DNA of 63,723 nucleotides, filler included, from Folioceros fuciformis (taxonomy: Eukaryota): assembly GCA_049999805.1 (NCBI GenBank). It is 23 parts of 23 records of this genome, joined end to end, with 100 filler letters (N's around TTAATTAATTAA, not from the genome) between each part and the next. Parts side by side here need not be neighbours in the genome. Positions count along the whole stretch, not along the records: positions 58,954 to 60,274 come from JBNGIO010002775.1; 22 more parts are not named here. One strand, 5' to 3'. The notes beneath the pieces are model-generated. The model did no database searches, had not been told where the DNA came from, and saw nothing but the letters and a program-made list of their open reading frames with translations. Position 1 is the first letter of the stretch; each line of letters starts with the position of its first letter. Both the position numbers and the translations under genes were made by a program. Positions 5,283 to 63,723 of this stretch are shown in pieces.

Positions 5283-5523
5283 TACTCAAACTAACTAGAA
5301 GCCCGAAGAGATGGAACCATCAGAGTCAGAAACCTCTTCTATCTCTATTGCGACCCCCGACTGGATGATATCGTTGGTGGACTCATCTTTGATGGTGTAG
5401 CCGGGACGTCGTTCGGGCAGTGGAACTTGGAGTGTTCTCATTTTCAGTCCTCGTGGCTTCTCTTAATTTTTTTTTTTATCAGCCTCCACTCCTCACTGAG
5501 CCTCTGGGCAGACCCTGTATTTA

Positions 5524-5623
5524 NNNNNNNNNNNNNNNNNNNNNNNNNNNNNNNNNNNNNNNNNNNNTTAATTAATTAANNNNNNNNNNNNNNNNNNNNN
5601 NNNNNNNNNNNNNNNNNNNNNNN
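5524..5623. other. Artificial contig spacer (first of 22)
   Basis: 44 N + TTAATTAATTAA + 44 N; also starts at 10078, 11366, 12682, 14368, 17469, 19739, 24431, 25999, 27762, 29557, 30808, 32610, 35267, 36589, 39887, 42743, 52912, 54777, 56361, 58854, 60275. Confidence 0.99.
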
Positions 5624-5795: not shown

Positions 5796-5837
5796 AGGAA
5801 TCCGTCGGCAATCAGTGCCCGGGGTTTTGCCTCCACA
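5796..5837 (+). mobile_element. Element terminus type A (...GGGGTTTTGCCTCCACA), short remnant
   Basis: Matches the ends at 33159, 40070, 53487 and the reverse-oriented end at 12534. Confidence 0.8.
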
Positions 5838-6897
5838 GTGCTGAATCTACTGAGGAGAGAGAGCTAGAAGACTGAAGAGAACCGTGGAAGATTGCTGGAA
5901 GAGATTTGCTGAGAAAATGCTGAGAAATCGTTGAGAGACTACTGAGAAAGTTTGTTGAAGTTGGACGAGATTGCTGGGGAATTTCCGAGGAATCCCTAGA
6001 CGTTTGTGAAGGACTGTGAGAGGTTGCTAAGGTGGCTGTAAGGTTTCTGGAGAGCTGGCAATATTTCTGGAGAACTGAAGAGAAAACGGCTGTGAAGTTG
6101 CTTGAGGAAGAGTGCCAAAGATTTGATTCAAAATCTGGAGAATTTCTGCGAGATTTTGAAGCATTTGTGAGCGGCTGTTGGAGATTGTTGAAGCTTGTGA
6201 GGAGTTGTGGGAGATTGCTGAAGAATCAATGGAGATGTGGGAACATTGCTGGAGATTGAGACCCTTGGGGACATGCTTGTGAAAATAATCGTGAACCAGA
6301 GCTCTTGTGTGTGATTTGCATGTGTGTGGAGTGTTGCATGTGTGTGTGGAGAGGTGTGGTTGATCCGCAAGGCTTTGTTCCCCAAGGATCAGCCCTTGCA
6401 TGTGTGAGGAGCATCGAATAACCCAGCCCTATGAGTCTGGAATGTCCTGGGCAGAAACCCGTGGGTGGAAACCGGTGGCGGCGCCTGTGCCAAAAATAAT
6501 TAATTAGGGTTTGGGATGGGACCCCCCATGGTAGTGGAAAGACAACGGAGCTAGGCGAAGCGGCTACCGGTAGTTGAAAGACGACAGAGGTAGTGGAATC
6601 CACTACCAGTAGTTGAGACCCTACCTCGGTAGTTGAAGGGTCGGTAGTTGTAGAGACCCCCACCCCAGTAGCCGAGTAGGTCTGTCAGGTAGTCCAGGGA
6701 CGGAGGTAGGGGTAGTTGAACCTGTAGGTAGTGGAGCTGGGGTAGTTGAAGTCCAACCTAGGCAGTAACTGACTTTTAGAAGAAACCTATGTTATTTGAC
6801 ACAAATCATTCCCTTGGGAGCGAATCCCAGTGCTATAACAACAAAGAGGGTTTGTGTGGACCTCACAGCACCCCAGGGTGCAATATTTTCCCCCACA
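5838..6897 (+). mobile_element. Terminal region of TG..CA element, terminus type B (...TGCAATATTTTCCCCCACA)
   Basis: 6787-6897 is the reverse complement homolog of 61328-61445; GGTAG-rich sub-repeats. Confidence 0.7.
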
Positions 6898-7856
6898 CCA
6901 TAGTATCTCAAAAATTGGAGATATCACGTGGTGAACAAAGGAATTAGCGTTCATGTATCTGTTGTGCAAATCTGTGTCCAAGCTCAAGACGAGGATTAGC
7001 AACACGACCATCAAGAGTGTTGTCACCCTGTGAAGATGAAGATTCAATCCTGAAAGTAACTCGTTCAGCAATTGATGGTTCCATTGGAGACACTCGGATT
7101 CTGCTGTTCAGAACAAGATCAGATCTCACCTTTCAAATTGATTCAACAATTCGAATGATTGCCGCTCTCATGGAGGATCTACGCCTGCAATTTGAGACTT
7201 CTCAAGTGCAAATTATGACTATTCAGAGAATTGCGCATTTTCTCAGAGTTTCAGACCCAGGACTCTTGCTAATGGATTCTCAAGCTGCCCTATACTTACC
7301 AACGCTGTCACCTCTGATTCGCTAGCGCGATGCTTTAGAGGCGGCCTGATTAGATTGGTGAGAGCCGTGCTGCAGCTGGGGGTGGATAGAGCTCACCACT
7401 CCATGCGCTGTTTGCAGCCAGCCACCAATAGGCGCCTTGCGCATGACTGACGGTTGGTTTTCATGTACACGTAGGCACATTGCTCCTAGATTGTGTACAC
7501 TTGTCATGAGCATACAACTTGTCATATCCTTAAACTTGTAAGTTAGGGCACGTTTGGTGTTTCTAGGGCTCACTTGCTTACCGTTTCGAATCTCCATGTC
7601 GTTTCGGAGTGGCGTTTTGATTATGATTTGTTTTTTATTAGTTAATAGCCTGCAAACATTTGATGCGTCTACGTATTCTCTGCATGAATGCATAGACATT
7701 TTCTGTATGTCAGGTCTCTCACTTCCCTTTGAAGAGACTGATAGTGATCCTGACACAGACCCAGAAACAGAGGCCTCATTTTTGCAGTCTCTAACTTCTC
7801 AATTTTCCTTTATCGTTGCTCCTCCTGCACCTGTTCTCCTTGTTGTTATTGCACAA

Positions 7857-10694: not shown

Positions 10695-11365
10695 CTACAA
10701 GGGGTGAGCAAATCTACCAACTTGAGGTAAATTGGCCTGTTGATTTGCTAATCTATTTTCTATCCTTTGATGTCTAATCTCCCATCTGTTAAATGCATAA
10801 ACAGAGCATGAAGGACAGGAATTTGGAGCGTCAAAAGTGTGTTGCTTATAATTCTTGTTAGCACGTTTGCAAGCAACACCTCTGAGTGCAGGATTTGTTA
10901 GCAAAATGGGCTTAAGCAAGGTAAGCAACTTGAAGTCCAAATGTCCTATACGTTCCTTCAAATCTTGCAAGTCAACACTGACTTCAGCTATCTTGTGACG
11001 AATGCTCTGGAAACGCTCGTCAACATGCTGTTGAAGTGTTTCTATTCTTGCATTTAATTGTGACACACTAACATGTGGTGATGTGCGTGTTGTCAGGAAA
11101 CCCCTAGGGTTACCGTTTACAATAGGTGGAAGATTAATTTGATTCCTGGGTGGTGGAGGAAGCAACAAATGGCGCTGTTGTGGGAAGATAGCCTCAAGCA
11201 GATTGTTGAAGGAATCTCTCACAAGCCGGGATTGTTCAGGCTGGTCTTGTGTTTGAAGAATCCAATCCAGGGTTTGATGGTGAAGTGATTCTGCAAAAGT
11301 CAGCCTGCCCTCTTGAATTCGTTGTCCTCTATGGGCATTCCTCTATTGAATGCGCTCAGCAGAGC
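10695..11365 (-). pseudogene. Diverged ORF0 homolog upstream of copia gag
   Basis: IGHLDFKLLTLLKP, RGVACK, PNSCPSC, VYAFN.WEIR shared with 38-718; the 5' part has a stop and a frameshift. Confidence 0.85.
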
Positions 11366-12533: not shown

Positions 12534-12681
12534 TGTGGAGGCAAAACCCCGGGCACCGATCGCCAACGGGTTCCACCTTTAGTGGCCACACTTATCCCAC
12601 TGTCGTTGAGACATTGGGTTTCGTTCCCACGAAGGAGCGATGGGGTTCCTTGCTGCTGTGGATGGAGGGTCGGACTTGATC
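12534..12681 (-). mobile_element. Element terminus type A, reverse orientation
   Basis: TGTGGAGGCAAAACCCCGGG...; reverse complement of 53340-53487. Confidence 0.9.
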
Positions 12682-12978: not shown

Positions 12979-13698
12979 ATGGCCAATCGCCTCGATGGGC
13001 GCCAGTGGCAGCCTCGCCCTGCAGAGAGAATTCAACATCAGAATCTCAACAAGAGGCAAGGAGCACAGGCAGCAATAGCAAAGCATCTTCATCCACAAGT
13101 TACTGAATGGATTGCTCATGCACAAAATCAACTTGTGCTTGCTTTGGATGTAAGAGAATCTTTTAATACCTTGATTGAAGTTCTCTTCCCAGATCAGCGC
13201 CATCTGGTACTGGCTCTTCCACCTAGGAACCCAGACAATCTCCCAGAGGTGCGTGTTCAGAGAGTCTTTGATGGTAATGGCGTACAAAGAGGTTTTCTAA
13301 CAACACACGTTGCACCTGCTACAAGTGTATCTCAATTAGTAAATAGAATTGAGGCACATCAAGCATATGTTGATACACGTTTCAACAATATTCTACGCAA
13401 TGTTTCTGCAACTAGTGTGGATGTAAGAGACTTGCAAGAACAGATAGGGCATCTAGATTTTAAACTTCTTACCTTGTTGAAACCTGCTTTACTTGCTAAT
13501 CCAGCACATAGGGGAGTAGCCTGTAAGCATGTTAAGAAAACAAGTAAGAAACATTTGTTTGGTGTTCCAAACTTTTGCCCTTCCTACTCAGTGTATGCAT
13601 TTAATAAATGGGAGATTAGAAACCAAAGAATAGCAAATAGAATTAGAGAACAAGGGTCTGTAGAAGACAGACCTGCTAATGCTGTCAACATTCTTTGA
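12979..13698 (+). CDS. ORF0 copy 2 upstream of copia gag
   Basis: 239-aa intact ORF colinear with 38-718; ends 113 nt before the gag ATG at 13812. Confidence 0.8.
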   Translation: MANRLDGRQWQPRPAERIQHQNLNKRQGAQAAIAKHLHPQVTEWIAHAQNQLVLALDVRESFNTLIEVLFPDQRHLVLALPPRNPDNLPEVRVQRVFDGNGVQRGFLTTHVAPATSVSQLVNRIEAHQAYVDTRFNNILRNVSATSVDVRDLQEQIGHLDFKLLTLLKPALLANPAHRGVACKHVKKTSKKHLFGVPNFCPSYSVYAFNKWEIRNQRIANRIREQGSVEDRPANAVNIL

Positions 13699-14467: not shown

Positions 14468-14726
14468 CATACCCCACTCACCTACCTACAGACCTGGTCC
14501 TTAATGTTCTTAATGACCCGAGAGGCAAGGAGGCACTCGCTCATTCCTCCTCCTGGTCCTGGTCTTCAGTACACCCCAAACCCCAAAGCCCAAGAGGGAC
14601 TTTGGGCATAAACGCCCTGTTCTTATTTACCTACTAAGCCGATTCGCATGTCCCTTCACAAAAAAAATCACAACCTGCTCATTCCGTCGCTCAAAATGGG
14701 GGTTCCGAAAGTTTTTTTCGTTCACA
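14468..14726 (-). mobile_element. Element terminus type C (TGTGAACGAAAAAAACTTTCGG on minus strand), abutting the ORF of another copy
   Basis: Homologous to about 36975-37212; homology ends exactly at ...GTTCACA. Confidence 0.85.
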
Positions 14727-17468
14727 CAAGCCCAGGAAGAGGATGGTGCCACAAAACAAGACTCCTGGCAAGAGGAAAAGGACCAAAGGACAAAGTGTGA
14801 GCATGGGGGCTGATTAGGAGGAAGGGGGGACAGCCCTGGAGCAGACGGGTCAGCAGGAGGCAGAACGAGAACCAGCTGTCCAGGGAATCAAGGACCGAAG
14901 GTTGGAAGAGCAAGGTCAGGGTGAGACAAGACCCGAGGAACCACTGGATCAGGTGATGGTAGCCGACACAATTTCCTCCAGACAGGAGGATAAGTTAGGG
15001 CACGTTTCAGCACAGGAGGGTTCCTCAAGGTGGAAGGACATTTTCAAGTGCAGGCCTCAGAGAGACAGGTTGTAGGTGGGGGACCTGGACAAGTTGCGAG
15101 AATTCCTGGGAAGATAAATCACGGCAAGAGGAATGGGCGCCGGAGGGGTGCAGGAGGTGGACCTACCCGGGCTTACTGCTGCGATAGTGCAGGCCCAAGC
15201 AGACCTCCTGGATTAGGCTGCTAGGGCCCTGACCTGGTTAAGTGTACAGGCGGTGCGAGAGGCCGAGGCTTGGGGAAAGGAGGAGAAGGCTCGTGAGCGA
15301 GAGGCTAAAGCAAGGAGCCAACTAGTGGAGTCGGAGACGGCGTGGCAACTGCTGAAGGAGAAGCAGCAGGTCCTGGACGGGGAGAAGGCTCAAGCCGAGG
15401 AAGAGGCGCGTGAGGCGAGGGCTAAAGTGCAAGCGCTGAAAGAGCAACAGGGGACCCTGCTAGCTCAGGTGAGGGAGGCTCACGAGACTAACCTGGAGAT
15501 GCAACAGGAAATGGTCAGGGCACAGGAGATAGCCGCTGTAGAGCAGGCTCAGAAGTTGGCTGACAGATACAAGCGCGAGCAGGATGAGGGTGAAGGGGAA
15601 GAGCAAGGCTGGGTGTCCGAGTCAGTCGGCGACCCCGGTAGCAGAAGGGGCTATCGGTAGCCGAACCAGGGGAACGGTAGTCGAGGGGACTACCGGTAGT
15701 CCATGGGACTACCAAATAGTCCACGGGACTACCGGATAGTCCACGGGACTACGGATAGTCGGGTAGCCGACGGGGCTACCGGTGGCCCAGCAAGGCCTAG
15801 GATAGCTAAAGAACCAACCCTGGAAACGAAGGAGGAAGCAGTAGGGGTGCCTACCCCTAGGCGCTCCAAGAGGGTGACCCGTACTAGGAGGATAGAGCCG
15901 GAGGAGGCAACAGCTGGGCAGGCAGAGAACCTTCAGGTACCCCAGCGGGAGGGGGAGCATGCAACCCGAGGTAGCCCAAGGGAGGATGGGGTAAGCACCT
16001 CTGTTATGACAAAAGGTCGGATTGTGCTGCAGTATGAGGAGGAGGCCTCCTATGTGCCAGGCCTGTATGTAGAAGGGGCCAGGGTTCTGAAGCTGTTTCT
16101 GTATGTACGTATGGGCACAAGAGGGACACGGGGCTACGGCCTACAGTTGAGGACGCGCCTGGGACTCTACCACTACAAATGGTGGGTGACAGGACTGCCC
16201 CACTGCTATGCGGAGGCAGTTCTGGAGGAACTGACGGAAGAGGAGGCCTAGCGCTGGGTAGAACGGGGGCCTGTGGCTGTCCTCAACAACCAGAGAAGGA
16301 GGAGGAGTGGTGGACCACAGCGGCGGGACCCACTTGCGCCACCAGCCAGGTCCAGCAGTAGCAACATTGATGTGGAGATCCTCTGGGAGGATCTGTCGGA
16401 CCAACGGAGGGGCAGAAGAGCGAGAGGAGGAGCAGCAAGGGGTGACGCGCGAAGGCCAGTAGCAAGCCGCCTGCGGCATGGGAAAGGGCGATAGTAAATG
16501 CAGGCTAGAATAGGATTTGTTTAGCGTGCTTTATTTGGACCTAAGTCACTCAGAATTTAAGAGCGCAGCTCCCCTGCCTGACAAACTTTATGGCGGAAAA
16601 AAACCGCCATCACCGTGTACAAGAGGCCAGTTTGGAGGCCTAAGAAATCAGCAAGAACCAGCCGAACAGTCGACCTTGCAGGGACCTAGCGATGGCCATT
16701 GCTGGACAGGAGGTCCAGGCAAGCGAGCGCACGTAGCAACCAGGGGTGCGGGTGTAGGTGGTGGGCGCTCCGTGATTAGGTCCGGGGACGAATCGGGAGG
16801 AGGAGCCTCGCCGAGTGGGAGAGAAGCTCCCCAGCTATCCTCGAGGTGGTCACGTGGGGTGGTGCAGGAGTCGGAGCCGAATTCGCGAGTGCGGAGTGGA
16901 AGGGACTCCTCTTCCCTTAGCCCTATACCTCACCATTCCTCAACGTTAATAGGAGCCCAGGAGGGGGCATCGCTGAGAAAGAAGACTGAAGAACCAGAGA
17001 AAGGAGAGCGCGGGAGTGCGCGTGTGAGAGAAGGAGGAGGAGCGAGTGGCCGAGTAGTGGGTAAGAGCGAATGCGAAAAGGAAGCTAGAAGGAGTGGAGC
17101 AGAGTGGAAGTGATTTGACGACTGTTAAGACGGGCAGAATGTATACAGAGAACTGGCGAGTGGGGTAAGAGAGAACAAAGCCGGGGAAACCCCGAAGAAG
17201 AGGTGGATAATGTGTGTGAGGTGCAACGAGACGTGGTGTGTATGTGTGATTGGTCGCGATAAGACTGGAGAGGTTGTGAAGAAGCTGAATTGAGGCCGCA
17301 GGGGTTGTATCTAAGGTGTGAGATCACGCGGGAGGAAGGCGTCCAACAGATTGCTGCTGTTCATGTGTGCGTGCGCTTCTTTCTGAGGTGAGTGAGGCGG
17401 TTTTGTGGTGAACCAAGGAAGGGAAGCGCAAAAGGGGATGCGCGGGCAGGAGGTAATCAGCCGGGTAG
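14727..17468 (+). mobile_element. ORF-bearing TG..CA element: 3' half of the ORF (stop at 16494) and conserved downstream non-coding region
   Basis: Homologous to 29657-30807, 55220-56360, 58954-59340 and 62340-63570; coiled coil EKLREF...ADRYKRE; C-terminal LQYEEE.SYVPGLYVEGARVLKLFLY domain. Confidence 0.85.
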
Positions 17469-29656: not shown

Positions 29657-30807
29657 TTCACTCTCTCTCTGGCCTCATCCCGCTCCCGCTTGTATCTGTC
29701 AGCCAACTTCTGAGCCTGCTCCACGGCGGCTATCTCCATCTCCTGTGCCCTGGCCATTTCCTGTTGCATCTCCAAGTTAGTCTCGTGAGCCTCCCTCACC
29801 TGAGCTAGCAGGGTCCCCTGTTGCTCTTTCAGCGCCTGCACTTCAGCCCTTGCCTCGCGCGCCTCTTCCTCGGCTTGAGCCTTCTCTCTGTCCAGGACCC
29901 GCTACTTCTCCTCCAGCAGTTGTCGCGCCGTCTCTGACTCCGCGAGTTGCCTCCTTGCTTCAGCCTCTCGCTCACGAGCCTTCTCCTCCTTTCCCCAAGC
30001 CTCGGCCTCTCGCTCCGCTTGTACACTTAACCAGGTCAGGGCCCTAGCAGCCTAATCCAGGAGGTCTGCTTGGGCCTGCACCATCGCAGCAGTCAGCCTG
30101 GGTAGGTCCACCTCCTGCACCCCTCCAGTGCCCATTCCTCTCGTTGTGATTTGTTTGCCTAGGAATTCTCGCAACTTGTCCAGGTCCCCCACCTGCAACC
30201 TGTCTCTCTGAGGCCTGCACCTGAAAATGTCCTTCCACCTTGAGGAACCCTCCTGTGCTGAAACGTGCCCTACCTTATCCTCCTGTCTGGAGGAAACTGT
30301 GTCGGCTGCCATCACCTGATCCCGTGGCTCCTCGGGTCTTGTCCCACCCTGACCTTGCTCCTCCAACCTTCGGTCCTTGATTCCCTGGACAACTGGTTCT
30401 CATTCTGCCTCCTGCTGACCCATCTGCACCATGGCTGTCCCCCCTTCCTCCTGATCAGCCCCCATGCTCACACTTTGTCCTCTGGTCCCTTTCCTCTTGG
30501 CAGGAGTCTTCTTTTGTGGCACCAACCTCTTCCTGGGCTTGATTGGGGTTTCCTCCTGCGAGCTATTCCCACTGTCAGCTTCCCAACTGTTGGAGGCAGC
30601 CCTTGCTAGCTCAGCGGGCTTCCACTTCACATCGCGAACTGGCTTCCACAGGTGCAGCGAGGCCAGCCATTCTAGCTCAGTGACCAGGTTAGCGTAACAG
30701 TACACATGGATTAGAAATGGGGAAATCATAGAAGGTTCAGGGGTGGGTCGGATCAGGTTCTGCCTCTCCTCATCCATCCGGGTGTATAAAATCCTCCCCT
30801 AGTCGAT
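29657..30807 (-). mobile_element. ORF-bearing TG..CA element, middle of the ORF
   Basis: RILYTRMDEER...SSRWKDIFRCRPQRDRLQVGDLDKLREF...EQAQKLADRYKRE. Confidence 0.9.
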
Positions 30808-32709: not shown

Positions 32710-33159
32710 AGAGGGGAGTGTGTTCCCTTCTTTCTTTTCTTTGGGGTTAGTCTAGTGACTCTTGCCGGGTAGGAGGAGTCAATAGGGAAGTGTAGAAGGT
32801 AGTGGTGTCATTGTTAGTTGCTGGTGTTGGTGCTGGAGTGAGAGAGTGAGTGAAGTGAGTGAGGGAAGTCGCAGATCTAAGAGGTTAGGGTCGTTGTAGT
32901 GACTGGAGTGAGTTTGTGGGCACTGAGAGAGGTGCAGCTGACCGCCGGACAGCGAGGCCTGTCCTATGGCTGATCAGAGCTGGAGGGGAGCCCTCGAATC
33001 CATCATCGAGTCGATCAAGTCTGACTTCCATCCACAGCAGCAAGGAACCCCATCGCTCCTTCGTGGGAACGAAACCCAATGTCTCAATGACAGTGGGATA
33101 AGTGTGGCCACTAAAGGTGGAACCCGTTGGCAATCAGTGCTCGGGGTTTTGCCTCCACA
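32710..33159 (+). mobile_element. Terminus type A region inserted into copia RT
   Basis: Near identical to 53035-53487; at CCTCCACA the sequence switches to RT colinear with 18278 onward. Confidence 0.92.
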
Positions 33160-36688: not shown

Positions 36689-37212
36689 ACCGCTCGCGCC
36701 TTGGAGGTCTTCCACTCCCCTGCGCTTGCTCGACCCTTACGCCCTACGCCGTCTGTCCCGTCGTCCTGGCGCTTTCGCCTTCCTCAGCCACTTTACGCTT
36801 CAAGTTACTCCTGCTCCCCACGCTTCCGGATACTAGACAAAGCTCCCCTTTCTCTAGGGTTTTTATACCCTGCCTGCTTTCTCTTCTTACCGCCCATCGG
36901 GCTACCACCAGTCGTTCCTCCGGCGACGGTTGCCCTGCCGGCTACCGTCGCCCCGTCGTCTCGGCCCTTACTTTGGCCTACCTGAATGTTCTCAAGGACT
37001 CGAGGGTCAGGGAGGCACTCGCTGCTTCCTCCTTCCTCCTTGTCCCGATCTCTAGTACACCCCAAACCCCGAAGCCCAAGGTGGACTTTGGGTATAAACA
37101 CCCTGGTCTTACTCGCTTACTAAGCCGATTCGCCTGTCCCCTCACAAAAAGAATGACAACCTGCTCATTCCGTCGCTCAAAATGGGGATTCCGAAAGTTT
37201 TTTTCGTTCACA
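36689..37212 (-). mobile_element. 5' terminus (type C) of ORF-bearing element, inserted into gypsy RT
   Basis: TGTGAACG at 37212 interrupts YRGLNRV; continues into sequence homologous to 54877-55160 and 60230-60274. Confidence 0.88.
36850..36871 (-). promoter_or_regulatory. Candidate TATA box upstream of the element ORF
   Basis: GGGTATAAAAACCCTAGAGAAA; counterpart GGCATAAAAACCCTATAG near 54987. Confidence 0.4.
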
Positions 37213-39761
37213 AACTCGATTGAGCCCTCGATAGTCTATGCACAACCGCCATCCTCCATCTGGTTTGGCAACTAAGAGGACTGGAGCACCAAAGGGTGAC
37301 ACAAAAGGTTGTACAAAACTCATCAACCTGTTTTTTGATCTCTTCGTTTTCCATTGTAGATGTCTTGTAGGGCTGGATACTAACCGGTTTGTGGCCTGGC
37401 AGCAACTCAATGGCATGGTCCACGGTTCTTCGAGGAGGGAGCTCCGTGGGTTCAGCAAACACATCTTGATACTCCTGGAGCAGGTCCTTCATGGGCTGTG
37501 GGAGCTGGTCCTCGTGAACCTTGGCTTCTGCGGCCCTTGACTTCGCAGTGCCTTCTAAGGGAAGCACCTTCTTGATCTTTGCTATGGACAGGAATCTGTC
37601 CATGGCAGTTGCTTTATTGAGAGCAGAGACAACAAACAATTGCTTGTCAGGGAGGTACTGTTCCCCCTGCATGACGTATGTCTGATGGTCTTGCAGGAGG
37701 TGAACAACGTTTTCCTTTCAGTCTACCTCCAGTTGATTCGAGTGACTAGCTAACCAAGGCTTGCCTATGATCAGGTTGTGGCAGAGCGAGGGCATCACGA
37801 TCAGCTTAAGAACCTCCTTGAACCCTCCTGGAAAGGTAAGCTATGCTTCTGTCCACTATTCTCTACTTGTCTCCTTCTCGCCTAGGGCTGTGATCACTGT
37901 GGAGACCTAACCTGTGTCCTTGACAGACAGGCCAGCTCTTTCTACAGCTGCCTTGAACACATAATGATGACTGGCCCCAGAGTCAAGCAACCCTGTGGCC
38001 CGGATTTCGGCCAACGACACCTCAAGTTTGATAGGTATGTGAGCTAACTAGCATGCAGTAACTGATCCAAGTTTACTTGCAGGATCAAGGATGGCCGCAG
38101 CTAGAGTGGGTTCACTAACCTCTGCAAGGGTTATGGCGTGTCCACTCTTGACAGAGGTTGGGGAGACGCCGCTCCTAGTGGACTTGCCTGTCTCCTTTAG
38201 CCAGCTTATGATGTCCCTCCTGAAAGGGCATGATTTCGAACCATGTCCGGAGGCTGAGCAGGTAAAGCACTTGCTGGCCTTCTTGTAGTCTTCCTTCTCT
38301 TCCTTCGTGAGGATTTTGAAGGTGGGCTTCTTCTCTGTGGCGTTGGCAGACTTGCTCCACTTGGGCTTGGGAGGGCTTGTTGAGGAAAGATGCTTGTACT
38401 TGTTGGTGCCGTAGTTGATGGCCATCTTTATGGCCTCTACCATGGTTGTGGGGTTCATCTGGTTCACGTCTACCCACATCTCGAACTTTAACCCGTCGAT
38501 GAACTTCTCAATTTTCTGTTCCTTATCCAACCTAGGCATGTCCAGAGTAAGTTGTAAGAAGTTGTCACAGTACTCTTGAATTGTGCCTTGTTGGAAGATC
38601 TTCCTGAACTGCTGATACAGGTCCTTGCGGTGGTTCACTGGCAGGAACTATTCGACGAAGATTTGTCGAAAGACTGGCCAAGAGTAGATCGGGGACTCCA
38701 TGCCGAGGTCGACCTGTTTCTCCCGCTGGCGCCACCAACGGTATGCATACCCCTCCAATGACATGACGCAGAACTGGATCTTCTGCAAGTCATCTTTGTC
38801 AGAGGCAGCAAGATACTTGTCAATTTTGTCTAACCAGTCGTGGACGCCCTGGGCATCCTTGGCTCCTCCATCGAAGGTAGTTGTCTTGATTTTTCGGTGG
38901 AGCTCCTTGTCCAGCTGAGGCCTGGGTTTGAACAAGTAGTCCTCACCTTCTTGTGCTTTGCTGTTAGTTCTTCCCCGTTGGTTCTCCTAGTGTTCATACC
39001 TCATCAGCTATAGGCGCCTGACCATGGCCTTGAGGTCCTTGTTATCCTTCTCACCAGGTAAGAGTTCCACGACTAACCTCTTCAGTTCCTCCTCTACTGT
39101 GCTCAAGTCACTTTCGCTAGGAATGGTTGGCGTGGCCCTTGCTTCCTTCCTACCCTCAGAAGCCTGACCCAGGGGTGCCAAGGGAGTCGAATGGTGTGTG
39201 CCCTCAGCTGACTCAGTGGGCCTGGATGTCTTATGGCAGGGTGAGAGTGGCGAGGGTCCTGGGGGTGATATCTGCTCCAGCATCTTGAGCACACCCTCAA
39301 GCTGCCTTTCCAGCCGTGTCTGGCAAGGCTGGGAGACCCACCCACAAAAAGTGCCGCTTGATTTTAGATTGCATGATCGTACTCCCAGGAGACCAGGCCT
39401 CCACCAACATCGCGATAGATCCTCGAAATGACATTGTTGTTTGCAAGAGAGCCTGGGCTCCAGCTGCCTCATCACACTTAATTTGGAAAGGACCATATGC
39501 TTTCAAGAAGACATACGTTGGGGGGCAGCCCGTAGCTTGTGTCACCCAGTCCTCCAATTCGTCCACGGTGGGAGGACCTCCCGATAGAAGCCGCCCCACG
39601 ACCGAACTGGTATCAAGATTGTCTTCCTCTTTTTGAAAATAGCGCGCTTCGGTGAGAACGTCCGCCAAAGGACCGAGCTGTAAACTTGAGCCCTCTTTTG
39701 CTAAACCTGAGGCATAATCTTGAGAAGAGTCCGCCCGTACCTGATCTTGCGCATAGTCCAT
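37213..39761 (-). mobile_element. Ty3/gypsy gag-protease-start of RT, with N-terminal DUF4283-like domain
   Basis: TFDGG..WLDK..AYRWW capsid; CFTCSASGHGSKSC knuckle; LLDSGASHHYV protease; [13 protein letters not shown] and [29 protein letters not shown]. Confidence 0.93.
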
Positions 39762-39986: not shown

Positions 39987-40070
39987 CCAATGTCTCAACG
40001 ACAGTGGGATAAGTGTGGCCACTAAAGGTGGAACCCGTTGGCAATCAGTGCCCGGGGTTTTGCCTCCACA
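39987..40070 (+). mobile_element. Element terminus type A
   Basis: Matches 53404-53487. Confidence 0.9.
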
Positions 40071-47525: not shown

Positions 47526-47537
47526 GCTCTGATACCA
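47526..47537 (-). promoter_or_regulatory. Primer binding site (tRNA-iMet) directly after an LTR end
   Basis: Minus strand ...TTGACA TGGTATCAGAGC; the LTR extends to higher coordinates from 47538. Confidence 0.9.
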
Positions 47538-48548: not shown

Positions 48549-49478
48549 TCATGTCTCTCCTTTCAACCATGGATGATCCAATACATCCTTAGCTTTGGGG
48601 CGTAAAGAAGGAGCATCTTGCAACATTCTTAACATAAGATCTGATGCTAGGTTGGAAAAATATTTTCTAATTTGACCTAATCTTGAAGGTGATAAAACAC
48701 CTACATGTTGGAGAAGGTCGTTTTTAGTTGGGAATAAAGTTATATATGAACCACAGAGTATGCTATAAAGAAGTAACCCTAAGGTCCATATATCAACTTG
48801 AGATCCATAAGATTCTCCTTTCAAAATTTCAGGAGCCATTAGTTCTTGTGTGCCAATAATTCCCACACATGATTCGTCAGTCAAGATTGGACAGTGTATT
48901 GCAGATCGAAAATTAACTATGACTATGGAGGAGTTATTGTTTTCATTCAAAAAAAGAATATTTTTGTGTTTCAAGTCTCTATGTACAACACCATGAGTAT
49001 GGCATACATGAATGCCTGTTACAATCTCCTTAAAAACTCTCCGCACATTGTTCTCATCATATGTAAAAATCCTAGGAAATAAGGGTCCTCCCTTGTATAT
49101 ATTTGAGATCATGTGAATATGATATCTATCTTCAAATACTCCCTTTAAATCTATAATGTTGGGATGTTTTGGAAGAAATTCTTGAAGAGCACTCACCTCC
49201 CTTTGCAAATCTTGTGGTTCTAAGCCTAATATAAAGGCATCTTGCTTGTTAATAGTCTTGCAAGCTAGTTCCTTATGTGAGTTTTTGTCAATACAAAAAT
49301 AGATTTTGCTAAAAGTGCCTTCACGATATATCTTTTGTTGAAAAATATCGTATTTTCTTCTTACATGTGTTCTTAACACCTTAGGGTTATTTTCAAAGAC
49401 TTGCACTATTTTTGGATCAGGTGAAAAAGGATATATAGGAAAAGGAAATTTCTTGTACACGACAAAAGGAAACTTCAT
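48549..49478 (-). CDS. Intronless CDPK/CAMK-family kinase domain, probable pseudokinase or retrocopy
   Basis: LACKTINK, REV...LPKHPNI, HRDLKHKN, NFR in place of DFG, APE, DIWTLG, VLDHPW; no EF-hands. Confidence 0.85.
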   Translation of the reverse strand: MKFPFVVYKKFPFPIYPFSPDPKIVQVFENNPKVLRTHVRRKYDIFQQKIYREGTFSKIYFCIDKNSHKELACKTINKQDAFILGLEPQDLQREVSALQEFLPKHPNIIDLKGVFEDRYHIHMISNIYKGGPLFPRIFTYDENNVRRVFKEIVTGIHVCHTHGVVHRDLKHKNILFLNENNNSSIVIVNFRSAIHCPILTDESCVGIIGTQELMAPEILKGESYGSQVDIWTLGLLLYSILCGSYITLFPTKNDLLQHVGVLSPSRLGQIRKYFSNLASDLMLRMLQDAPSLRPKAKDVLDHPWLKGET

Positions 49479-49500
49479 TCTTGAATACTAGTTAGTAGGG

Positions 49501-51404: not shown

Positions 51405-51467
51405 AATCTGCTGACCATCTTTCGTTGGTAATACAGATTAACAAACTTTACACCAGAATTCATACAG

Positions 51468-51687
51468 TTGAGCACACTGCCCCTCACAATTGAGCACACT
51501 TGCCCTCACAATTGAGCACACTGCCCCTCACAATTGAGCACACTTGCCCTCACAATTGAGCACATTGCCCCTCACAATTGAGCACACTTGCCCTCACAAT
51601 TGAGCACACTGCCCCTCACAATTGAGCACACTTGCCCTCACAATTGAGCACACTGCCCCTCACAATTGAGCACACTGCCCCTCATAA
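51468..51687. repeat. 22-bp tandem repeat x10 in the gypsy 3' UTR
   Basis: TTGAGCACACTGCCCCTCACAA and TTGAGCACACTTGCCCTCACAA variants. Confidence 0.97.
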
Positions 51688-52837
51688 TGTATCAACTGCT
51701 ACACACATTGGACTAAACCATTGCCCCTCAGGCACTGCTTCTAGTGGAGGCTCTAAACAAAAAATATGCCACCCATCATTGCACCTATCACACAACAACA
51801 TGCAATGATCATTTCCAGAAGCTCCACAACTTGTACAAGCAAATCCCTTCTTCGGTACAAAAGCTTGCACATCAATTATTGGGTTTAAGTGAGGTAAATG
51901 ACATGACGCACAATTTTTCATGTGTTCCAAACAAGTTGTACTATCTTTCCCCTCCAACTCCAAAACTCCATTCAACTTCACACTTCTCACCCTTAATATT
52001 ATCCTACTCATACTTGTATCAATTGTTGTCATTGTCTTCCTCTGCAAATATACATAATCTCCAACTTCAAACTTTTTCACCTTAGGTCTGAAATGCCCAC
52101 TCCTTGTCTTCATGTACCTCAACTCATCTCTATGTTGAGCTATTAACAAGTTATCCATTGCCATAGGCATAATTCTCCTAAACAATTTTGCTCTATGTGT
52201 AACTATCTTCAACCAGTTATTAGGATCATCCAGCTCCACTATAGTATTCACCTTGTCTTCTAACATCCCAGATAACTGTGGTGTACATCCAAACAACAAC
52301 ATGTATGGTGAAAACTTTCCCAGCGATGCTTGCCTACTCATCCTATAACCCCTCGTAAGAAATGTCAACATCCTATCCCACTCACTCTTATCCATACCAA
52401 ACAATACTTCCTCAAAGCATTCTTACATGTCTGTACCATTCTTTCTGCCAAACCATCAGCCTCCAGATGATTCCTTAAAGTTACACTATGATCAATAAGA
52501 TACTCATTTAAAAATTCATCAAAATCTCCCATAAATTCAGTATCCTAATCTGTCAACACTTCTGCACAAGCCCCAAAAACATTCAACACATGATTAAGAA
52601 ACGCTTCTTTAATATCATGTGACTTCTTCTCTCTCAAAGGCACCAAAACTATCCACTTAGAGAAATGTTTTATCATCACCAACACATATATAAAACCTCT
52701 ACACTTGACTAGTACCTCTCCGGCAAAATCCAAACTCCACCTATAAAACATCCCCCTAATAGGTAGCGGATGAAGCTGAGAAGTTTTGCCCGAAAAACTT
52801 GCTTTCACCCTATCACAAACCTTACAAGTAGACACCA
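51682..52837 (-). mobile_element. Ty3/gypsy integrase with C-terminal PHD finger
   Basis: CKVCDR..LHPLPI..FYRWSLDFAG..HFSKW..EVLTD; ADGLAERMVQT; FEVGDYVYL; CTSC...LLCDRCNDGWHIFCLEPPL..VPEGQWFSPMC. Confidence 0.93.
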
Positions 52838-53011: not shown

Positions 53012-53487
53012 AAGGTTGTAGGGGGGAGATATCCAAGAGGGGAGTGTGTTCCCTTCTTCCTTTTGTTTGGGGTTAGTCTAGTGACTCTTGCCGGGTAGGA
53101 GGAGTCAGTAGGGAAGTGTAGAAGGTAGTGGTGTCGTTGCTGGTTGCTGGTAGTTGTTGGTGTTGGTGCTGGAGCGAGAGAGTGAGTGAAGGAAGTCGCA
53201 GATCTGAGAGGTTAGAGTCGTTGTAGTGGCTGGAGTGAGTTTGTGGGCACCGAGAGAGGTGCAGCTAACCGCCGGACAGCGAGGCCTGTCCTACGCCTGA
53301 TCGGAGCTGGAGGGGAGCCCTCGAATCCGTCATCGAGTCGATCAAGTCCGACCCTCCATCCACAGCAGCAAGGAACCCCATCGCTCCTTCGTGGGAACGA
53401 AACCCAATGTCTCAACGACAGTGGGATAAGTGTGGCCACTAAAGGTGGAACCCGTTGGCAATCGGTGCCCGGGGTTTTGCCTCCACA
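53012..53487 (+). mobile_element. Terminus type A region inserted into a copia LTR
   Basis: Near identical to 32710-33159. Confidence 0.9.
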
Positions 53488-54876: not shown

Positions 54877-56360
54877 AGGCAAAAGTAAGGGCCGAGACAA
54901 TGTGGCGACGGTAGTCGGCAGGGCAACCGTCGCCGGAGGAATGACTGGTGGTAGCCAAACGGGCGGTAAGGAGAGAAAGCAAGCAGGGCATAAAAACCCT
55001 ATAGAAAGGGGAGCTTTGTCCAGCATCCGAAAGCGCGGGGAGCGGGAGTAACTTGAAGCGTGAAGCGGCTGAACGAGGAGAAAGAACTAGGACGACGGGG
55101 TAGGGCGTAAGGGTTGAGCAGGCACAGGGGAGTGGGAGACCTCCAAGGCGCGAGCGGTGGAGAGAGTTGGGCGAACAGAGGAAGAGCCAGAGCGTGACGA
55201 GGATAGAAGAGTTCCGAGCCTGAAATGGGGAAATCAGGAGGAAATGGGGACAAACCTGGAGCAGACGGATCAGCAGGAGGCAGAACGAGAACCAGCTGTC
55301 CAAGGGATCAAGGACCGAAGGTTGGAGGAGCAAGGTCAGGATGAGACCAGACCCGAGAGCCACCAGATCAGGTGATGGCAGCTGACACAGTTTCCTCCAG
55401 ACAGGAGGATAAGTTAGGGCACGTTTCAGCACAGGAGGGTTCCTCAAGGTGGAAGGGCATTTTCAGGTGCAGGCCTCAGAGAGATAGGTTGCAGGTGGGG
55501 GACCTGGACAAGTTGGGAGAATTCCTGGGCAGACAAATCACGGCGAGAGGAATGGGCGCCAGAGGGGTGCAGGAGGTGGACCTACCCGCGCTGACTGCTG
55601 CGATGGTGCAGGCCCAAGTAGACCTCCTGGATCAGGCTGCTAGGGCCTTGACCTAGTTAAGTGTACAAGCGGAGCAAGAGGCCGAGGCTTGGGGAAGGGA
55701 GGAGAAGGCTCGTGAGCGAGAGGCTCAAGCAAGGAGGCAACTGGCGAAGTCGGAGACGGCGCGGCAACTGCTGGAGGAGACGCAGCGGAACCTGGACAGG
55801 GAGAAGGCTCAAGCCGAGGAAGAGGCGCGCGAGGCAAGGGCTGAAGTGCAGGCGCTAAAAGAGCAATAGGGGACCCTGCTAGCTCAGGTGAGGGAGGCTC
55901 ACGAGACTAACTTGGAGATGCAATAGGAAATGGCCAGGGCACAGGAGATGGAGATAGCCGCTGTGGAGTAGGCTCAAAAGTTGGCTGATAGATACAAGCG
56001 GGAGCGGGATGAGGCCAAAGAGAGTGAAGGGGAAGAGCAAGGCTGGGCGTCCGAGTCAGTTGGCGACCTCGGTAGCAAAAGGGGCTACCGGTAGCCGAAC
56101 TAGGGGAACGGTAGTCGAGGGGACTACCGGTAACCGAACCAGGGGAACGGTAGTCGAGGGGACTACCGGTAGCCGAACCAGGGGAACGGTAGTCGAGGGG
56201 ACTACCGGTAGCCGAATCAGGGGAACGGTAGTCGAGGGGACTACCGGTAGCCGAACCAGGGGAACGGTAGTCGAGGGGACTACCAGTAGTTTGGTAGTCC
56301 ACGGGACTACCAGTAGTTTGGTAGTCCACGGGACTACCAGTAGTCGGGTAGCCGACGGGG
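54877..56360 (+). mobile_element. ORF-bearing TG..CA element with internal deletion
   Basis: 5' leader joins directly to mid-ORF near 55220, lacking about 0.9 kb present at 59240-60160. Confidence 0.88.
56081..56360 (+). repeat. 39-bp x5 plus 27-bp x2 tandem repeats inside the element ORF
   Basis: CTACCGGTAGCCGAACCAGGGGAACGGTAGTCGAGGGGA units, then GGGACTACCAGTAGTTTGGTAGTCCAC units. Confidence 0.93.
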
Positions 56361-58953: not shown

Positions 58954-60274
58954 AGGAATTCTCGCAACTTGTCCAGGTCCCCCACCTGCAACCTGTCTCT
59001 CTGAGGCCTGCACCTGAAAATGTCCTTCCACCTTGAGGAACCCTCCTGTGCTGAAGCGTGCCCTAACTTATCCTCTTGTCTGGAGGAAACTGTGTCGGCT
59101 GCCATCACCTGATCCGGTGGCTCCTCGGATCTTGTCCCACCCTGACCTTGCTCCTCCAACCTTCGGTTCTTGATTCCCTGGACAGCTGGTTCTCGTTCTG
59201 CCTCCTGTTGACCTGTCTGCTCCAGGGCTGTCTCCCCTTCCTCCTGATCAGCCCCCATGCTCACACTTTGTCCTCTGATCCTCTTCCTCCTGGCAAGAGC
59301 CTTTTTTTGTGGGGCCACCCTCTTCCTAGGCTTGACTGGGGTTTCCTCCTGCGAGCTATTCCCACTGTCAGCTTCCCAACTGCTGGAGGCAGCCCTTGCT
59401 GGCTCAGTGGGCTTCCACTTCACATCACGAACTGGCTTCCATAGGTGCAGCGAGGCCAGCCTTTCTAGCTCAGTGACCAGGTTAGCGTAACTGTACACGT
59501 GGATTAGAAACAGGGAAATCATAGAAGGTTCAGGGGTGGGTCGGATCAGGTTCGGCCTCTCCTCATCCATCCGGGTGTATAAAATCCTTCCCCAGTCAAT
59601 CCTGGTGCCCTTCACTACTTCATGCACAAACAGGAGCATCTGATCAGACAGATAATCTTATTTGCGTACCTGGAAGAAGCTCAGGAACCACCTGGCCAAT
59701 CCCAGCAGCTGGGGACTTGCCATGTCGCGCACCAGCCCCCCGTTCGCTTCCTTTCTCGTGCCTGCCTTAAGCATTTCCGCCGCTCCCGTTCCGCCACGCC
59801 TTTCCAGGGACTCCAGCACCAGTCCCCCTTCCTCCTGTTGGTCGCGCCCATAGACCCTCCTGATCAACTCCAGGTTCCATTCCTGGGGTCTGCCTCTGAT
59901 CCCCTCCTCGCATACAGGCTCTATCAGCCTCAGGGCGCACTCCTTGACCAGCTGGGGTGCTGCATGGTTCCACTTATGGGTCATAAAAGTTAGACCCAGC
60001 TCTGCTACTAATTTTCCTGCCTTGACCCTCCAGTGCTGCATATTGGGCCACAGAAGCAGGTCGATTTGGGGGACATGAGGTCCCCCCTCCTGTCTAGAGG
60101 CTGCTGCTCCAGGAATTAGTTCAGGCCGCGACCTCATCCTGCCTATCCCCCTCCCCTCACGCTCGGGCTCGGAACTCTTCTGTCCTGGTCGCGCTCTGGC
60201 TCTTCCTTTGTTCGCCCAGCTCTCTCCACTGCTCACGCCTTGGAGGTCTTCCACTCCCCTGTGCCTGCTCAACC
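58954..60274 (-). mobile_element. ORF-bearing TG..CA element, N-terminal half of the ORF (ATG about 60137)
   Basis: One frame with a single stop at 59658; APQLVKEC..IRGRPQEWN..MLLFVHEVVKGTRIDWGRILY. Confidence 0.88.
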
Positions 60275-60374: not shown

Positions 60375-60725
60375 TAGAAATCGGTAGGGGAGGTACTGGG
60401 GCCCTTCCAAGTGAAGGAATGGTGCCTACCTACTGACGAGACGTGTTGCAGGATTGGTAGGAACGTGATTGGAACGTAAAAATCGGTAGGGGAGGTATTG
60501 GGGCCCTTCCAAGTGAAGGAATGGTGCCTACCTACTGATGGGACGTGTGGCCAGATTGGTAGGTACGTGGTTGGGAGAGTTGACTAGTATAGGGGAGCGA
60601 TAGATGTAGCTGACCAGGCTCAGAGGGGAACGATTCCGGGGAAGCCTACAACGACCGTGGGATTAATGTGGCCACGATACATGTGAGTGGGTGCCTAGTA
60701 GGGATACCATGCCCACTTGCCCACA
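60375..60725 (+). mobile_element. Terminal segment ending ...TTGCCCACA inserted into copia integrase; contains a ~102-bp tandem duplication
   Basis: AAATCGGTAGGGGAGGTA.TGGGGCCCTTCC at 60378 and 60480; switches to YYLTLTDGYSRY after 60725. Confidence 0.65.
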
Positions 60726-61327
60726 GTATTACCTTACTCTCACCGACGGCTATAGTCGATACTTATGGACCATCCCCATGCAGCTAAAGAGTGATACTTT
60801 TCAACTGTTCAGAGACTGGCTCCCTGTGGTGCAGCGACACACTGGACAGGTTGTTAAATGGCTTCGAACTGACAATGGCACTGAATTCATCAATGCACAA
60901 TTTGATGCCTACCTACAGGAGTATGGAATTCAGCGTCAGCTGACAGTCCCCTACACACCACAACATCATGGAGTTGCCGAACATAAAAATCAAACCTTAC
61001 TCGGCATGATTCGCAACATGTTGCTTTGGGCTGAACTCCCACAAGGATATTGCGCAGAGGCAGTGGTGGCTGCTACCTACATACTAAACAGGGTGTTCAC
61101 AAGTTCTGTCAAAGGGCAGACCCCCTATGAGGTACTTTGGAAACGTAAGCCCAGCATTCTTCATCTCTGAGACTTCGGCTCTTGGGCTTTCGGCCATATC
61201 CCTACCAAAAAGAGGAGGAAGTTAGACAATAGGGCTCAAGGTCTTATTTTTGTAGGATACAGCGAGAATGTCAAAGCTTATAAACTTTATGACAAGCATT
61301 GACATACCATTGTTCTAGCAAGGAGTG
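60726..61327 (+). mobile_element. Ty1/copia integrase core fragment between two insertions
   Basis: LRTDNGTEF, YTPQHHGVAE, AEAVVAATY, LIFVGYS. Confidence 0.93.
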
Positions 61328-63576
61328 TGTGGAGGAAAATATTGCACCTGGGGGTGCTGCGAGGTCCACACAAACCCTATTTGTCATTATAGCACTGAGA
61401 TTCGATCCCAAGGGAATGATTTGTGTTAAATAACACAGGTTGTCTCACAAAGTCAATTACTACCCTGGGTCAGGCTCACACGGTTACTACTACCACCTAC
61501 CTGACCGCCTTGCTACCACCTGGTTACTCTGTCGCCTTGGCGGCTACTACTATTCCTGACTACTTTCGTCGTCCCTTTGGCGACGATCGCCCGATTGGCT
61601 ACCCCAGTGGGATCCACACTCTCTCTCTCTTTTCCTCTGACCCACACCACCTTTCTTTCTCTACCTCCTCTTTCTACTTACTTTTCCGGCTTATGCCTCT
61701 TGATTATCGGGATCTGTCGCAGACCTCTCCCTTTTCCCGTACTGGCAATCATTCTTCCTTCGCGACACACACCCCTCCATCCACTCACATCCACTCACTG
61801 CCCCTCTCAGGGGTCGAAGGTGCCCAGCTCATGCCCACACCCACACACATAGAAAGCCACGAACTTCACATACCTACCTACTCCTTAATCAGTCTGCACG
61901 CCCTCCTCCGCTATCGCGTTCGACTCGCCACCTCCGGGACAGACCCCTCGCGTTTGCTTGTACGTCCTTGTACTTCAGTCACATAGACACCGGTGAACTT
62001 CTCTTCACCTCACAACAATCCGTCAAAGCACCTAGACACATCTAGTTCTCGTCATGCTCCCCCTTATTTACTAGCTTGTCAGACGCGGCTACACATCCGC
62101 GGCGCTCACCCTCACCACTCCGGTTTCTCGGTTCTTCGGCTGCACCCTCAACTCGCTGCCACTCACACACCGTCAATCCAATCATCCAATTTTGCAACTT
62201 CTTTCTCCAGTCATCACCACAACCATACTCCGGATTCACGCGTAGCTCTCCTAGTGGCGGCCAGCAGGCCACCCGCTGGCTTCCTAACACGCAACCCTCG
62301 ACACATCCTCAATCTTTGATCTACTTACGACTCTCGTCTTCTCTCACCAATGTGCCCCGTCTAGGCCTTCTCTTCTCCTCGACGTTTGAAGGTATGGTGG
62401 GTCACCGAAGGCCAAGGGAAGGGTTATCCACTTCCACTCCGAACTCGCGGATTCGGTCTCCAACACCTTCACCACCCCACGCAACCGTCACAAGAATAGC
62501 TGGGGAGCTCATCTCCCACTCGGTGAGGTCTCTCCTCCCGATTCGTTCTTGGTTCCAGCTACGGAGCATCCACCACCTGCACCCGCACCTTCAGAACACT
62601 ACGTGCGCTCACTTGCCTGGACCTCCTATCCGACAACGGCCATCGCTAGGCTTCCACAACGTCGGAATGTCTGGCTGGTTTCTTGCTGATTTTTCCGAGG
62701 CCTCAAACTGGCCTCTTGTACACGGTAGTGGTGTTCTTTGCACCATAAAGTCTGTCAGGAGTCAGTCAGCGCTCTTGAATGCTGAGCGGCTTAGGTCCAA
62801 GCAACAACAATCTAAAAAAAACTGGTCTAGATTGTAATTACTATCGCCTCCTTCTTTGCCGCTGGCGCCTCCCTCCTGGCCGTCGCACTCCTCCCTCTAC
62901 TAGTTCGCCTCTGGCCCTCATGCCCCGACGCTGGTCAGGAAGGTCCTCCCACAAGACCTCCACCTCACTACTGCTGCTGCTGGGCCTTGCTGGCGGTGGC
63001 ACAGGAGGGTCCCGTTGCAGCAAATTCCTCCCCTCCCTTTGTTGCTGATTACTGAGGATGAGGACAGGCTCCCGTTCAACCCGCCGCTGCGCCTCCTCCT
63101 CCGTCAGCTCCTCCAGGATTGCCTCAGAATAGCAGTGAGGCAGCCCCCATACCCGCCAACGGTAGTAGTAGATGCCCCTGCAAGTATTCAGTTGTAGGCC
63201 GTAGCCCCGCATCCCTCCTGTGCCCATGTGTACATACAAAAACAGCTTCAGAACTCGGGCTCCCTCCACATAGAGGCCTGGCACATAAGAAGTCTCCTCC
63301 TCATATTGCAGCATAACTTGACCCTCTGTCATAAGGGAGATGCTTACCCCTTCCTCCCTTGGGCTACTTCGGGCTGCCCGACCCCTGCTCTCCTGGGGTA
63401 CCTGAGAGTCCTCCATCCCCCCGGCTGCTACTGCTTCCTCCGGCTCTGTCCGCCTGGTGCGAGTCGCCCTCATGGAACGCCTGGGCACAAGCGCCCTTGC
63501 TCTCGCTGCTCCGGCTACCGGGGTCGTGACTTTGGCTACCGAGGTCGCACCACCCCTTTCGGTAGCCCCTTCTGCA
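61328..63576 (-). mobile_element. ORF-bearing TG..CA element: ORF C-terminus (stop 62841), 1.5-kb downstream region and terminus type B
   Basis: C-terminal domain homologous to 15800-16494; TGTGGAGGAAAATATTGCA at 61328 interrupts copia ...ARSV. Confidence 0.88.
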
Positions 63577-63723
63577 AAAAGATAGGATCGAATGAATTGC
63601 ATTATGGGGTAACACACGTTTTGTGTGTCACCTGACATGTGACGGTTACAACCGTATTTAGGTAACCGTCTAGTTTGCTAATTAACCTAAGGACTGGACA
63701 AAATTAATATATATATAGTTTCA

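Follow-up and report, generated by a model that had tools for sequence, protein, structure and literature searches.

How does a repeat with no recognisable enzyme of its own become abundant in a plant genome, and what is the gene that it carries? The question is raised by a window of 63,723 bases of Folioceros fuciformis DNA (assembly GCA_049999805.1), in which 23 contigs, each 1.2-10 kb long, are strung together with N44-TTAATTAATTAA-N44 linkers, such that neighbours in the window are not neighbours in the genome. One contig, c22, which is exactly the span 58954-60274 (1,321 bp), encodes the N-terminal part of a protein that the original prediction had placed in an abundant repeat unit of ~4.7 kb with TG..CA ends. 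The unit was said to encode one protein of ~850 amino acids (aa) and no reverse transcriptase (RT), integrase or transposase motif. Our analysis indicates that the open reading frame (ORF) is a real gene under purifying selection and that the TG..CA ends are true insertion boundaries. As to the nature of the unit, the reading that we tentatively prefer, at slightly below even odds, is that it is a very long terminal repeat (LTR) of a Ty1/copia-type family and that this LTR itself carries the gene.

The gene opens on the minus strand of c22 with an ATG at 60137, ~615 bp from the TG end of the unit, and its frame is open to the contig end at 58954. These 394 codons include one in-frame TAA, at 59658-59660. 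A comparison of nonsynonymous and synonymous substitution rates (dN/dS) had been proposed as a check, and we ran it. For the C-terminal domain, contigs c06 and c23 give a dN/dS of 0.39 over 241 codons, compared with 0.81 and 0.96 in the shifted frames. Similarly, comparison of the distant relative L001 with L003 and L006 gives 0.22-0.23 in frame and 1.1-1.3 in shifted frames, and for the coiled coil of close copies within the window the values are 0.24-0.43 versus 0.59-1.43. The linker of close window copies (92-94% identical) showed no frame-specific signal (0.57 versus 0.59 and 0.44), which is as expected and fits dead copies. Because dN/dS is low in the coding frame only, in the window as well as in distant relatives, the ORF is a real gene under purifying selection. 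Consistent with the original prediction, no RT, integrase or transposase family matched the ORFs of the unit in Pfam. A match of split ORFs to SOAR (Pfam, E 0.018) was rejected as chance, and no other family was found.

An all-against-all BLASTN search of the contigs confirmed that overlapping copies tile one unit. Six or seven contigs take part, among them c16, c22, c20, c12, c06 and c23, and the 5′ piece in c16 overlaps c22 by 47 bp (Table 1). The proposed size holds insofar as the pieces add up to ~4.7 kb; neither the full unit nor the ~850-aa protein is seen in any single copy. All window copies are either broken or run off the end of their contig, with stops or frame shifts in c06, c12 and c20 and the single in-frame stop in c22. 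The only unbroken stretch among them is the 265-aa ORF of c23, which covers the C-terminal part alone, and c23 is also the only contig that joins the end of the ORF to a 3′ terminus. As had been anticipated, the reconstruction merges diverged copies: c06 and c23 are 75% identical, and their tails match only over the first 431 bp.

The ends of the unit are sharply defined. The 5′ end, TGTGAACGAAAA at 37212 in c16, cuts a gypsy-type RT frame (...IDYRGLNRV), and an inverted second 5′ end at 14726/14727 abuts the middle of another copy of the unit, a junction that is a nested insertion. The 3′ end of c23, TTTTCCTCCACA at 61328, abuts an antisense copia-type integrase core (PF00665, E 8e-11). A second 3′ end, TTTTCCCCCACA at 6897 in c02, belongs to a region 87% identical to the last 137 bp of c23. 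To examine the boundary in other genomic copies we used public Logan contigs from three DNA runs of one sample, aligned to c23. Exactly at 61328, 21 contigs (run X1) and 14 contigs (run X2) go loose into heterogeneous flanks (agreement 0.39-0.41), and depth drops from thousands to ~120, which is the appearance of a transposon boundary. Therefore, from the interrupted frames, the loose contigs and the heterogeneous flanks, the TG..CA ends are true insertion boundaries, and the termini first proposed at 37212 and 61328 are borne out. Other structural features of the original prediction also stand. TGTGAACGAAAA and TTTTCCTCCACA form an imperfect inverted repeat that matches at 10 of 12 bases, the TATA-like box is TATAAAA at 36861-36867, and the unit is abundant, with a summed k-mer depth (which is not copy number) of hundreds to several thousand across parts of c23.

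A further feature of the unit is a set of short motif clusters. Outside the unit, the density of CGGTAG in the window is 0.10 per kb; it is 1.9-10.8 per kb in those pieces of the unit that contain the motif, which is absent from c22 and c12. The GGTAG-type sites fall into three clusters: one at unit positions 231-307, just upstream of the TATA box, a second in the in-frame 39- and 27-bp tandem repeats of c20, and a third, present in c23 as well as in c02, 140-370 bp away from the 3′ end. The leaders of relatives contain 3-5 forward RGTAG sites, a modest enrichment (7 to 125 of 1,000 shuffles reach it) at loci that are not independent.

The gene belongs to a small family whose members share this organisation. 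HMMER searches against 1.84 billion representatives gave eight matches at E<=0.001 and none at 1e-10, and a profile search of longer proteins gave nine; P0001 was dropped as a chagasin-repeat artefact. The resulting unnamed family (P0002-P0007 and P0009-P0016, 244-723 aa) is characterised by an N-terminal domain of ~190 aa, an acidic stretch and a coiled coil, and no member carries a Pfam family or an enzyme fusion. A metagenome scan with P0010 identified seven loci with moss-like relatives. Five of the seven have one sharp 5′ boundary, TGTCG.., ~232-255 bp upstream of the ATG, with five different flanks. Hence a TGT end, a short leader and the ORF form a layout common to very distant plants (~25% protein identity). 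The relatives' leader is not repeated in their 700-790-bp tails, and scans with P0010, P0005 and alignment A5 revealed no relative in viral contigs. L004 and L007 share one internal deletion and L007 has its own distinct flank at the 5′ end; therefore this deletion derivative has spread, like c20. In a separate observation, the flank of the 5′ end in L001 (1-414) encodes a jacalin-like lectin fragment, host-like as judged by eye.

What kind of element is the unit? BLASTN down to word size 7 (c16 against c23, and c16 against the c06 tail) found no direct repeat between the two end regions, except one 36-bp patch of GGTAGC type at 75% identity. Therefore the unit is not a conventional short-LTR element, and if it is of LTR type, the whole unit must be the LTR. 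We lean towards a copia LTR because one 3′ end continues into the leader and gag of a copia-type element, and because its flank recurs among genomic copies. Specifically, behind the c02 end at 6897, one of the window's eight 3′ ends of types B, C and D, lie a leader of ~960 bp and a copia-type gag (from ~7858/7952), both in the orientation of that end, and an ORF in this leader has weak similarity (29% identity) to the extra ORF found 5′ in other copia contigs. Among public contigs, the plurality flank at 61328 in X2 (14 contigs) begins with TGG and by eye has TCTCAA..ATTGGA in common with the c02 flank, a gapped motif found within the window only at c02 6906-6919. The X1 plurality flank (21 contigs) has only ATTGGAGA in common with the c02 flank and does not start with TGG. 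Copia-type domains (rve counted) are present in 12 of the 23 contigs. No DNA transposase family was found in the 71 of 106 window ORFs (>=110 aa) that were scanned, the other 35 lying in the contigs of the unit or being partly covered by other scans, and this negative is limited by a window of only 64 kb. Finally, families B (five ends) and D (one end) share a ..CC(T/C)CCACA / ..GCCCACA end with the unit, D also sharing GGTAG repeats, which fits a lineage of related LTRs.

As such an LTR, the unit would exist in solo and paired copies, and its unique 3′ region (U3) would hold a complete gene with its own TATA box, so that LTR duplication and solo-LTR formation could spread the gene without any enzyme of its own. 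Every solo LTR would then be a copy of the gene. A protein gene in U3 has an animal precedent, the sag gene of mouse mammary tumour virus (MMTV), which lies in an LTR of ~1.3 kb. The likeness would end there: the unit is a ~4.7-kb plant repeat and only a candidate LTR, and the two proteins are unrelated. Large retrotransposon derivatives (LARD) and terminal-repeat retrotransposons in miniature (TRIM) are likewise abundant, enzyme-free and moved in trans, and differ in having two LTRs around a non-coding core, whereas the unit has no direct end repeats and contains a selected ORF.

Several observations weigh against an LTR. In the window no pair of copies was seen around an internal region, and no contig holds both ends of one copy. 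None of the eight 3′ ends of types B, C and D directly precedes a TGG primer site, a purine tract lies before neither of the two window 5′ ends and before only one of five in relatives, and the c02 flank has no canonical tRNA-iMet site. The only canonical junction of an LTR with a primer site, in c18 at 47537, does not share the unit's end. Compared with the leaders of other copia elements, that of c02 may be cut short, as an insertion would explain. The flanks were compared by eye, using noisy consensus lines of a single sample, and the X1 and X2 pluralities differ. Moreover, a gene kept inside an LTR across very distant plants is, to our knowledge, unprecedented. The c18 junction itself (...AAATTGACA/TGGTATCAGAGC) was used as a positive control. 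A tRNA-iMet primer site sought within the unit gave only a chance match with two mismatches inside the ORF, and the window contains no tRNA gene.

A rival reading is a stand-alone non-autonomous element that is not an LTR, has TG..CA ends and subterminal GGTAG repeats, carries the accessory protein as its only gene, and depends for its movement on an integrase or transposase supplied in trans from elsewhere. Such a free-rider would "pay" its mobiliser with, or exploit, a VANC-like anti-silencing or end-binding function. In its favour, the two ends differ in sequence and share no more than a short, imperfect inverted match; the motif clusters close to each end recall class II elements with subterminal repeats; and the absence of primer sites directly after all eight 3′ ends counts on the same side. 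Five 5′ ends of relatives sit in host DNA or DNA outside any transposable element (TE), one of them beside the jacalin-like ORF, and the closest solved fold to the N-terminal domain, VANC21, comes from a DNA transposon. The internal-deletion derivatives, which keep both ends (c20; L004/L007, with the distinct 5′ flank of L007), would also be expected here, but deletion derivatives propagate as LTRs too. In comparison with a class II transposon with terminal inverted repeats, no transposase family was found in the scanned window ORFs or in the unit's own, and the terminal match is limited to 10 of 12 bases. An LTR better fits both the junction in c02 with a copia leader and gag and the recurring flank motif. 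We consider a free-rider rather unlikely.

The 3′ tail bears on another explanation, in which the 4.7-kb unit is a composite. The ORF element and the 3′ terminal module would then come from different families, or from recombinant ones, and c23 would be an uncommon copy, recombinant or deleted; the usual form would be longer and might contain additional genes, perhaps including enzymes of its own. Only a chain of copies 75-93% identical connects the two ends, c06 runs 546 bp beyond its last similarity to c23 without reaching an end, and the end motif is also found in families B and D. Depth in the c23 tail is 17-200 versus 3,000-5,600 across its last ~170 bp, with values in the thousands on both sides of the tail, and at 61441 24 and 16 contigs switch to c02-like sequence, as most genomic copies do. 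The c23 tail is a minor or rare variant, and c02 5838-6897 looks like the common form of the last kilobase. However, c23 is one contiguous contig with an intact C-terminal ORF through to the end, public contigs span 61436-61998 and 61996-62454 without a difference, and c02, interrupted further upstream by a B-type end at 5837, may be the major tail variant of the same unit, its part plus the shared tail being about as long as the c23 tail; we judge a composite improbable. A relationship between the distal tail of c06 and the c02 region was also considered and rejected, the score lying within the shuffle range (52 versus a maximum of 54).

Returning to the LTR reading, what might its gene do? 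The encoded accessory protein would comprise a helical N-terminal domain of ~190 aa, a putative remote relative of PF20167/ATHILA with a VANC21-like fold, followed by a basic linker and the coiled coil, and further C-terminally by in-frame tandem repeats and a predicted beta-rich domain with a basic tail. The original prediction had likened the N-terminal pattern to PF20167 and to env-like ORFs. The env-like label found no backing. The resemblance to PF20167 was recovered in weak form: the c22 protein (stop read as X) aligns with profile positions 4-168 of 177 (hmmscan, E 0.05), and the ESM Atlas neighbours of the P0005 N-terminal domain include a PF20167 cluster (99% PF20167) at 0.87 and a partly ATHILA cluster at 0.87, a lead that suggests only remote kinship to PF20167/ATHILA. 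An AlphaFold2 model of the domain from 15 sequences reached a pLDDT (predicted local distance difference test) of 79.9 and a predicted template modelling score (pTM) of 0.75. Among 48,161 chains compared by VIA-align, the top match of this model was VANC21 with DNA (9lnk_A), at Z 6.0 and a root-mean-square deviation of 4.1, with 171 of 196 residues aligned at 9% identity. The runner-up (Z 4.2) aligned 66 residues, so the VANC21 match stands clear of other chains and spans the whole domain.

Against this kinship stand several results. The PF20167 score of 13.9 bits lies below the gathering cut-off of 45 bits, only one of 15 family members matches PF20167 at E<=1, and none matches the plant mobile domain (PMD) or DUF1985 (Pfam, E<=1). 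According to the tool's own note, a Z of 6.0 is within the chance range for helical folds, and Foldseek found nothing in the PDB at E<=0.001 with the same model. A profile of the N-terminal domain had no match to solved chains at E<=1, and a full-length profile (to E 10) gave weak coiled-coil matches only, the best at E 0.035. For the C-terminal domain, a search restricted to proteins 145-464 aa long yielded no homologue, its AlphaFold2 model is poor (pLDDT 51), and fold searches returned unrelated beta folds at Z <=4.8. A WGR identity for this domain, an atlas lead at 0.75, was unsupported by the fold search.

Accessory genes of plant transposons are poorly understood, and VANC is the one case with a shown anti-silencing mechanism. 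VANC is described in PMC5735166 as the anti-silencing factor of VANDAL21, which binds a 9-base motif accumulated as tandem repeats, its own variable regions being associated with tandem repeats. PMC13547354 describes it as dicot-specific and as structurally like MAIN, a plant mobile domain protein, with coiled-coil oligomers formed by both VANC and the Athila domain. According to PMC5418596, Gypsy elements encode PMD-A clades, and in PMC11728184 PF20167 marks a 3′ extra ORF of a sunflower Athila element and is said to be related to ATHILA ORF-1. Compared with VANC21 of VANDAL21, a Mutator-like DNA transposon of Arabidopsis, our protein would be alike in the modelled N-terminal fold, in being a TE accessory protein with a coiled coil, and in the combination of short motifs in the element's tandem repeats with variable repeat regions in the protein (for VANC, as described in PMC5735166). 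It differs in the very low identity, in the lack of a DUF1985 or PMD match, and in belonging to a unit with TG..CA ends and no transposase. The accessory ORFs (aORFs) of plant Ty3/gypsy elements, with the Athila domain (PF03078) or PF20167 (Transposase_32), likewise encode non-catalytic, TE-borne proteins with a globular domain and a coiled coil. Known aORFs, however, are internal, between LTR and gag or after pol, whereas here the unit has neither gag nor pol, the PF20167 score is far below the Pfam cut-off, and the C-terminal domain is without relatives in the size range searched.

Most likely, the protein is an accessory factor of the Athila/PF20167-VANC kind, oligomeric and without catalytic activity, that is directed at DNA or chromatin. 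Actual homology to that kind has, in our judgement, an even chance. We infer that the protein would oligomerise via its coiled coil and bind the GGTAG-type clusters that its own element has close to either end and within the internal repeats, and such binding may act on chromatin or silencing in a VANC-like manner. By analogy with VANC an anti-silencing role can be proposed, and we regard it as unlikely. Quite unlikely as a whole is the broadest scenario, an ancient land-plant lineage of TG..CA units, whether LTRs or free-riders, whose only gene would encode a VANC/Athila-like, coiled-coil, sequence-specific DNA binder that recognises the GGTAG clusters at its own ends and keeps the copies unsilenced. 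In that scenario an anti-silencing gene would spread riding in, or as, the terminal repeat of a retrotransposon, and each solo copy would stay a complete expression unit. More generally, if a VANC/Athila-like gene does lie at the very end of an enzyme-free TG..CA unit, with one layout in distant plants, an abundant repeat can have such a helper gene as its principal cargo. The GGTAG clusters offer a testable cis motif, and the protein family could be used to annotate large plant genomes.

Table 1. Pieces of the repeat unit and other features of the window.
Feature	Position	Strand	Details
5′ terminal 524 bp (c16)	36689..37212	-	end TGTGAACGAAAA; 3 GGTAG sites; TATAAAA
Leader and ORF start (c22)	58954..60274	-	N-terminal helical domain (~residues 40-235); basic/acidic linker
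Bridge from 5′ region to ORF (c20)	54877..56360	+	915-bp internal deletion removing the N-terminal domain
Tandem repeats of c20	56080-56359		39-bp (5.4 copies) and 27-bp (3.5 copies) repeats; CTACCGGTAG core
Mid-ORF (c12)	29657..30807	-	end of N-terminal domain, linker, coiled coil; frame breaks
Second copy's 5′ end	14499..14726	-	inverted, abutting another copy
ORF and tail (c06)	14727..17468	+	linker; coiled coil 15253-15660; short tandem repeats 15674-15760; C-terminal domain 15703-16494 (stops); 974-bp tail
C-terminal ORF and 3′ end (c23)	61328..63723	-	intact ORF 63638-62841; 1,513-bp tail; GGTAG cluster 140-340 bp from end; ...TTTTCCTCCACA
c02-type 3′ region	5838..6897	+	GGTAG cluster 160-370 bp from end; ...TTTTCCCCCACA
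Family B ends	5797-5837; 12534-12681 (-); 32710-33159; 39987-40070; 53036-53487		...GGGGTTTTGCCTCCACA
Family D	60375-60725		102-bp tandem repeat; ...CTTGCCCACA
Extra ORF upstream of copia gag	38-715 (+); 12979-13695 (+); 10698-11342 (-); 6948-7322 (+)		~215-240 aa; the last weak
DUF4283-like ORF (c16)	39297-39761	-	E 1.3e-4, below cut-off
Host-like gene pieces (c18)	48552-49487 (-); 51685-52422 (-); 51420-51727		protein kinase (E 7e-49), PHD finger, 22-bp tandem array
Canonical LTR end/primer-site junction (c18)	47526-47537	-	...AAATTGACA/TGGTATCAGAGC

The window holds further repeats and genes. Family B, whose end motif resembles that of the unit, has five ends, each with a different flank: in one case a copia RT is interrupted at its YVDD region (intact site in c07 at 18277/18278), and another flank adjoins a P450 fragment. 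D, a third, high-copy family, has a tandem repeat with many CGGTAGG / TTGGTAGG motifs, and its end at 60725 falls within a copia integrase frame; 14 contigs from the public runs go loose there. Several copia-type elements have a conserved extra ORF upstream of gag, with leaders of ~1 kb; its copies are 80% and 51% identical and match no Pfam family. The gypsy-type element of c16 has a DUF4283-like ORF upstream of gag. Pieces of host-like genes are found in c18.

Among the public runs, X4, guessed to be RNA, contributed three contigs on c23, covering 2 of 30 bins. In X3, differences from window positions 60375-63723 are mainly G>A (111) and C>T (54), a pattern not shown by X1 and X2, which come from that sample too; X3 resembles a bisulfite-type library and could serve to read methylation across these repeats.

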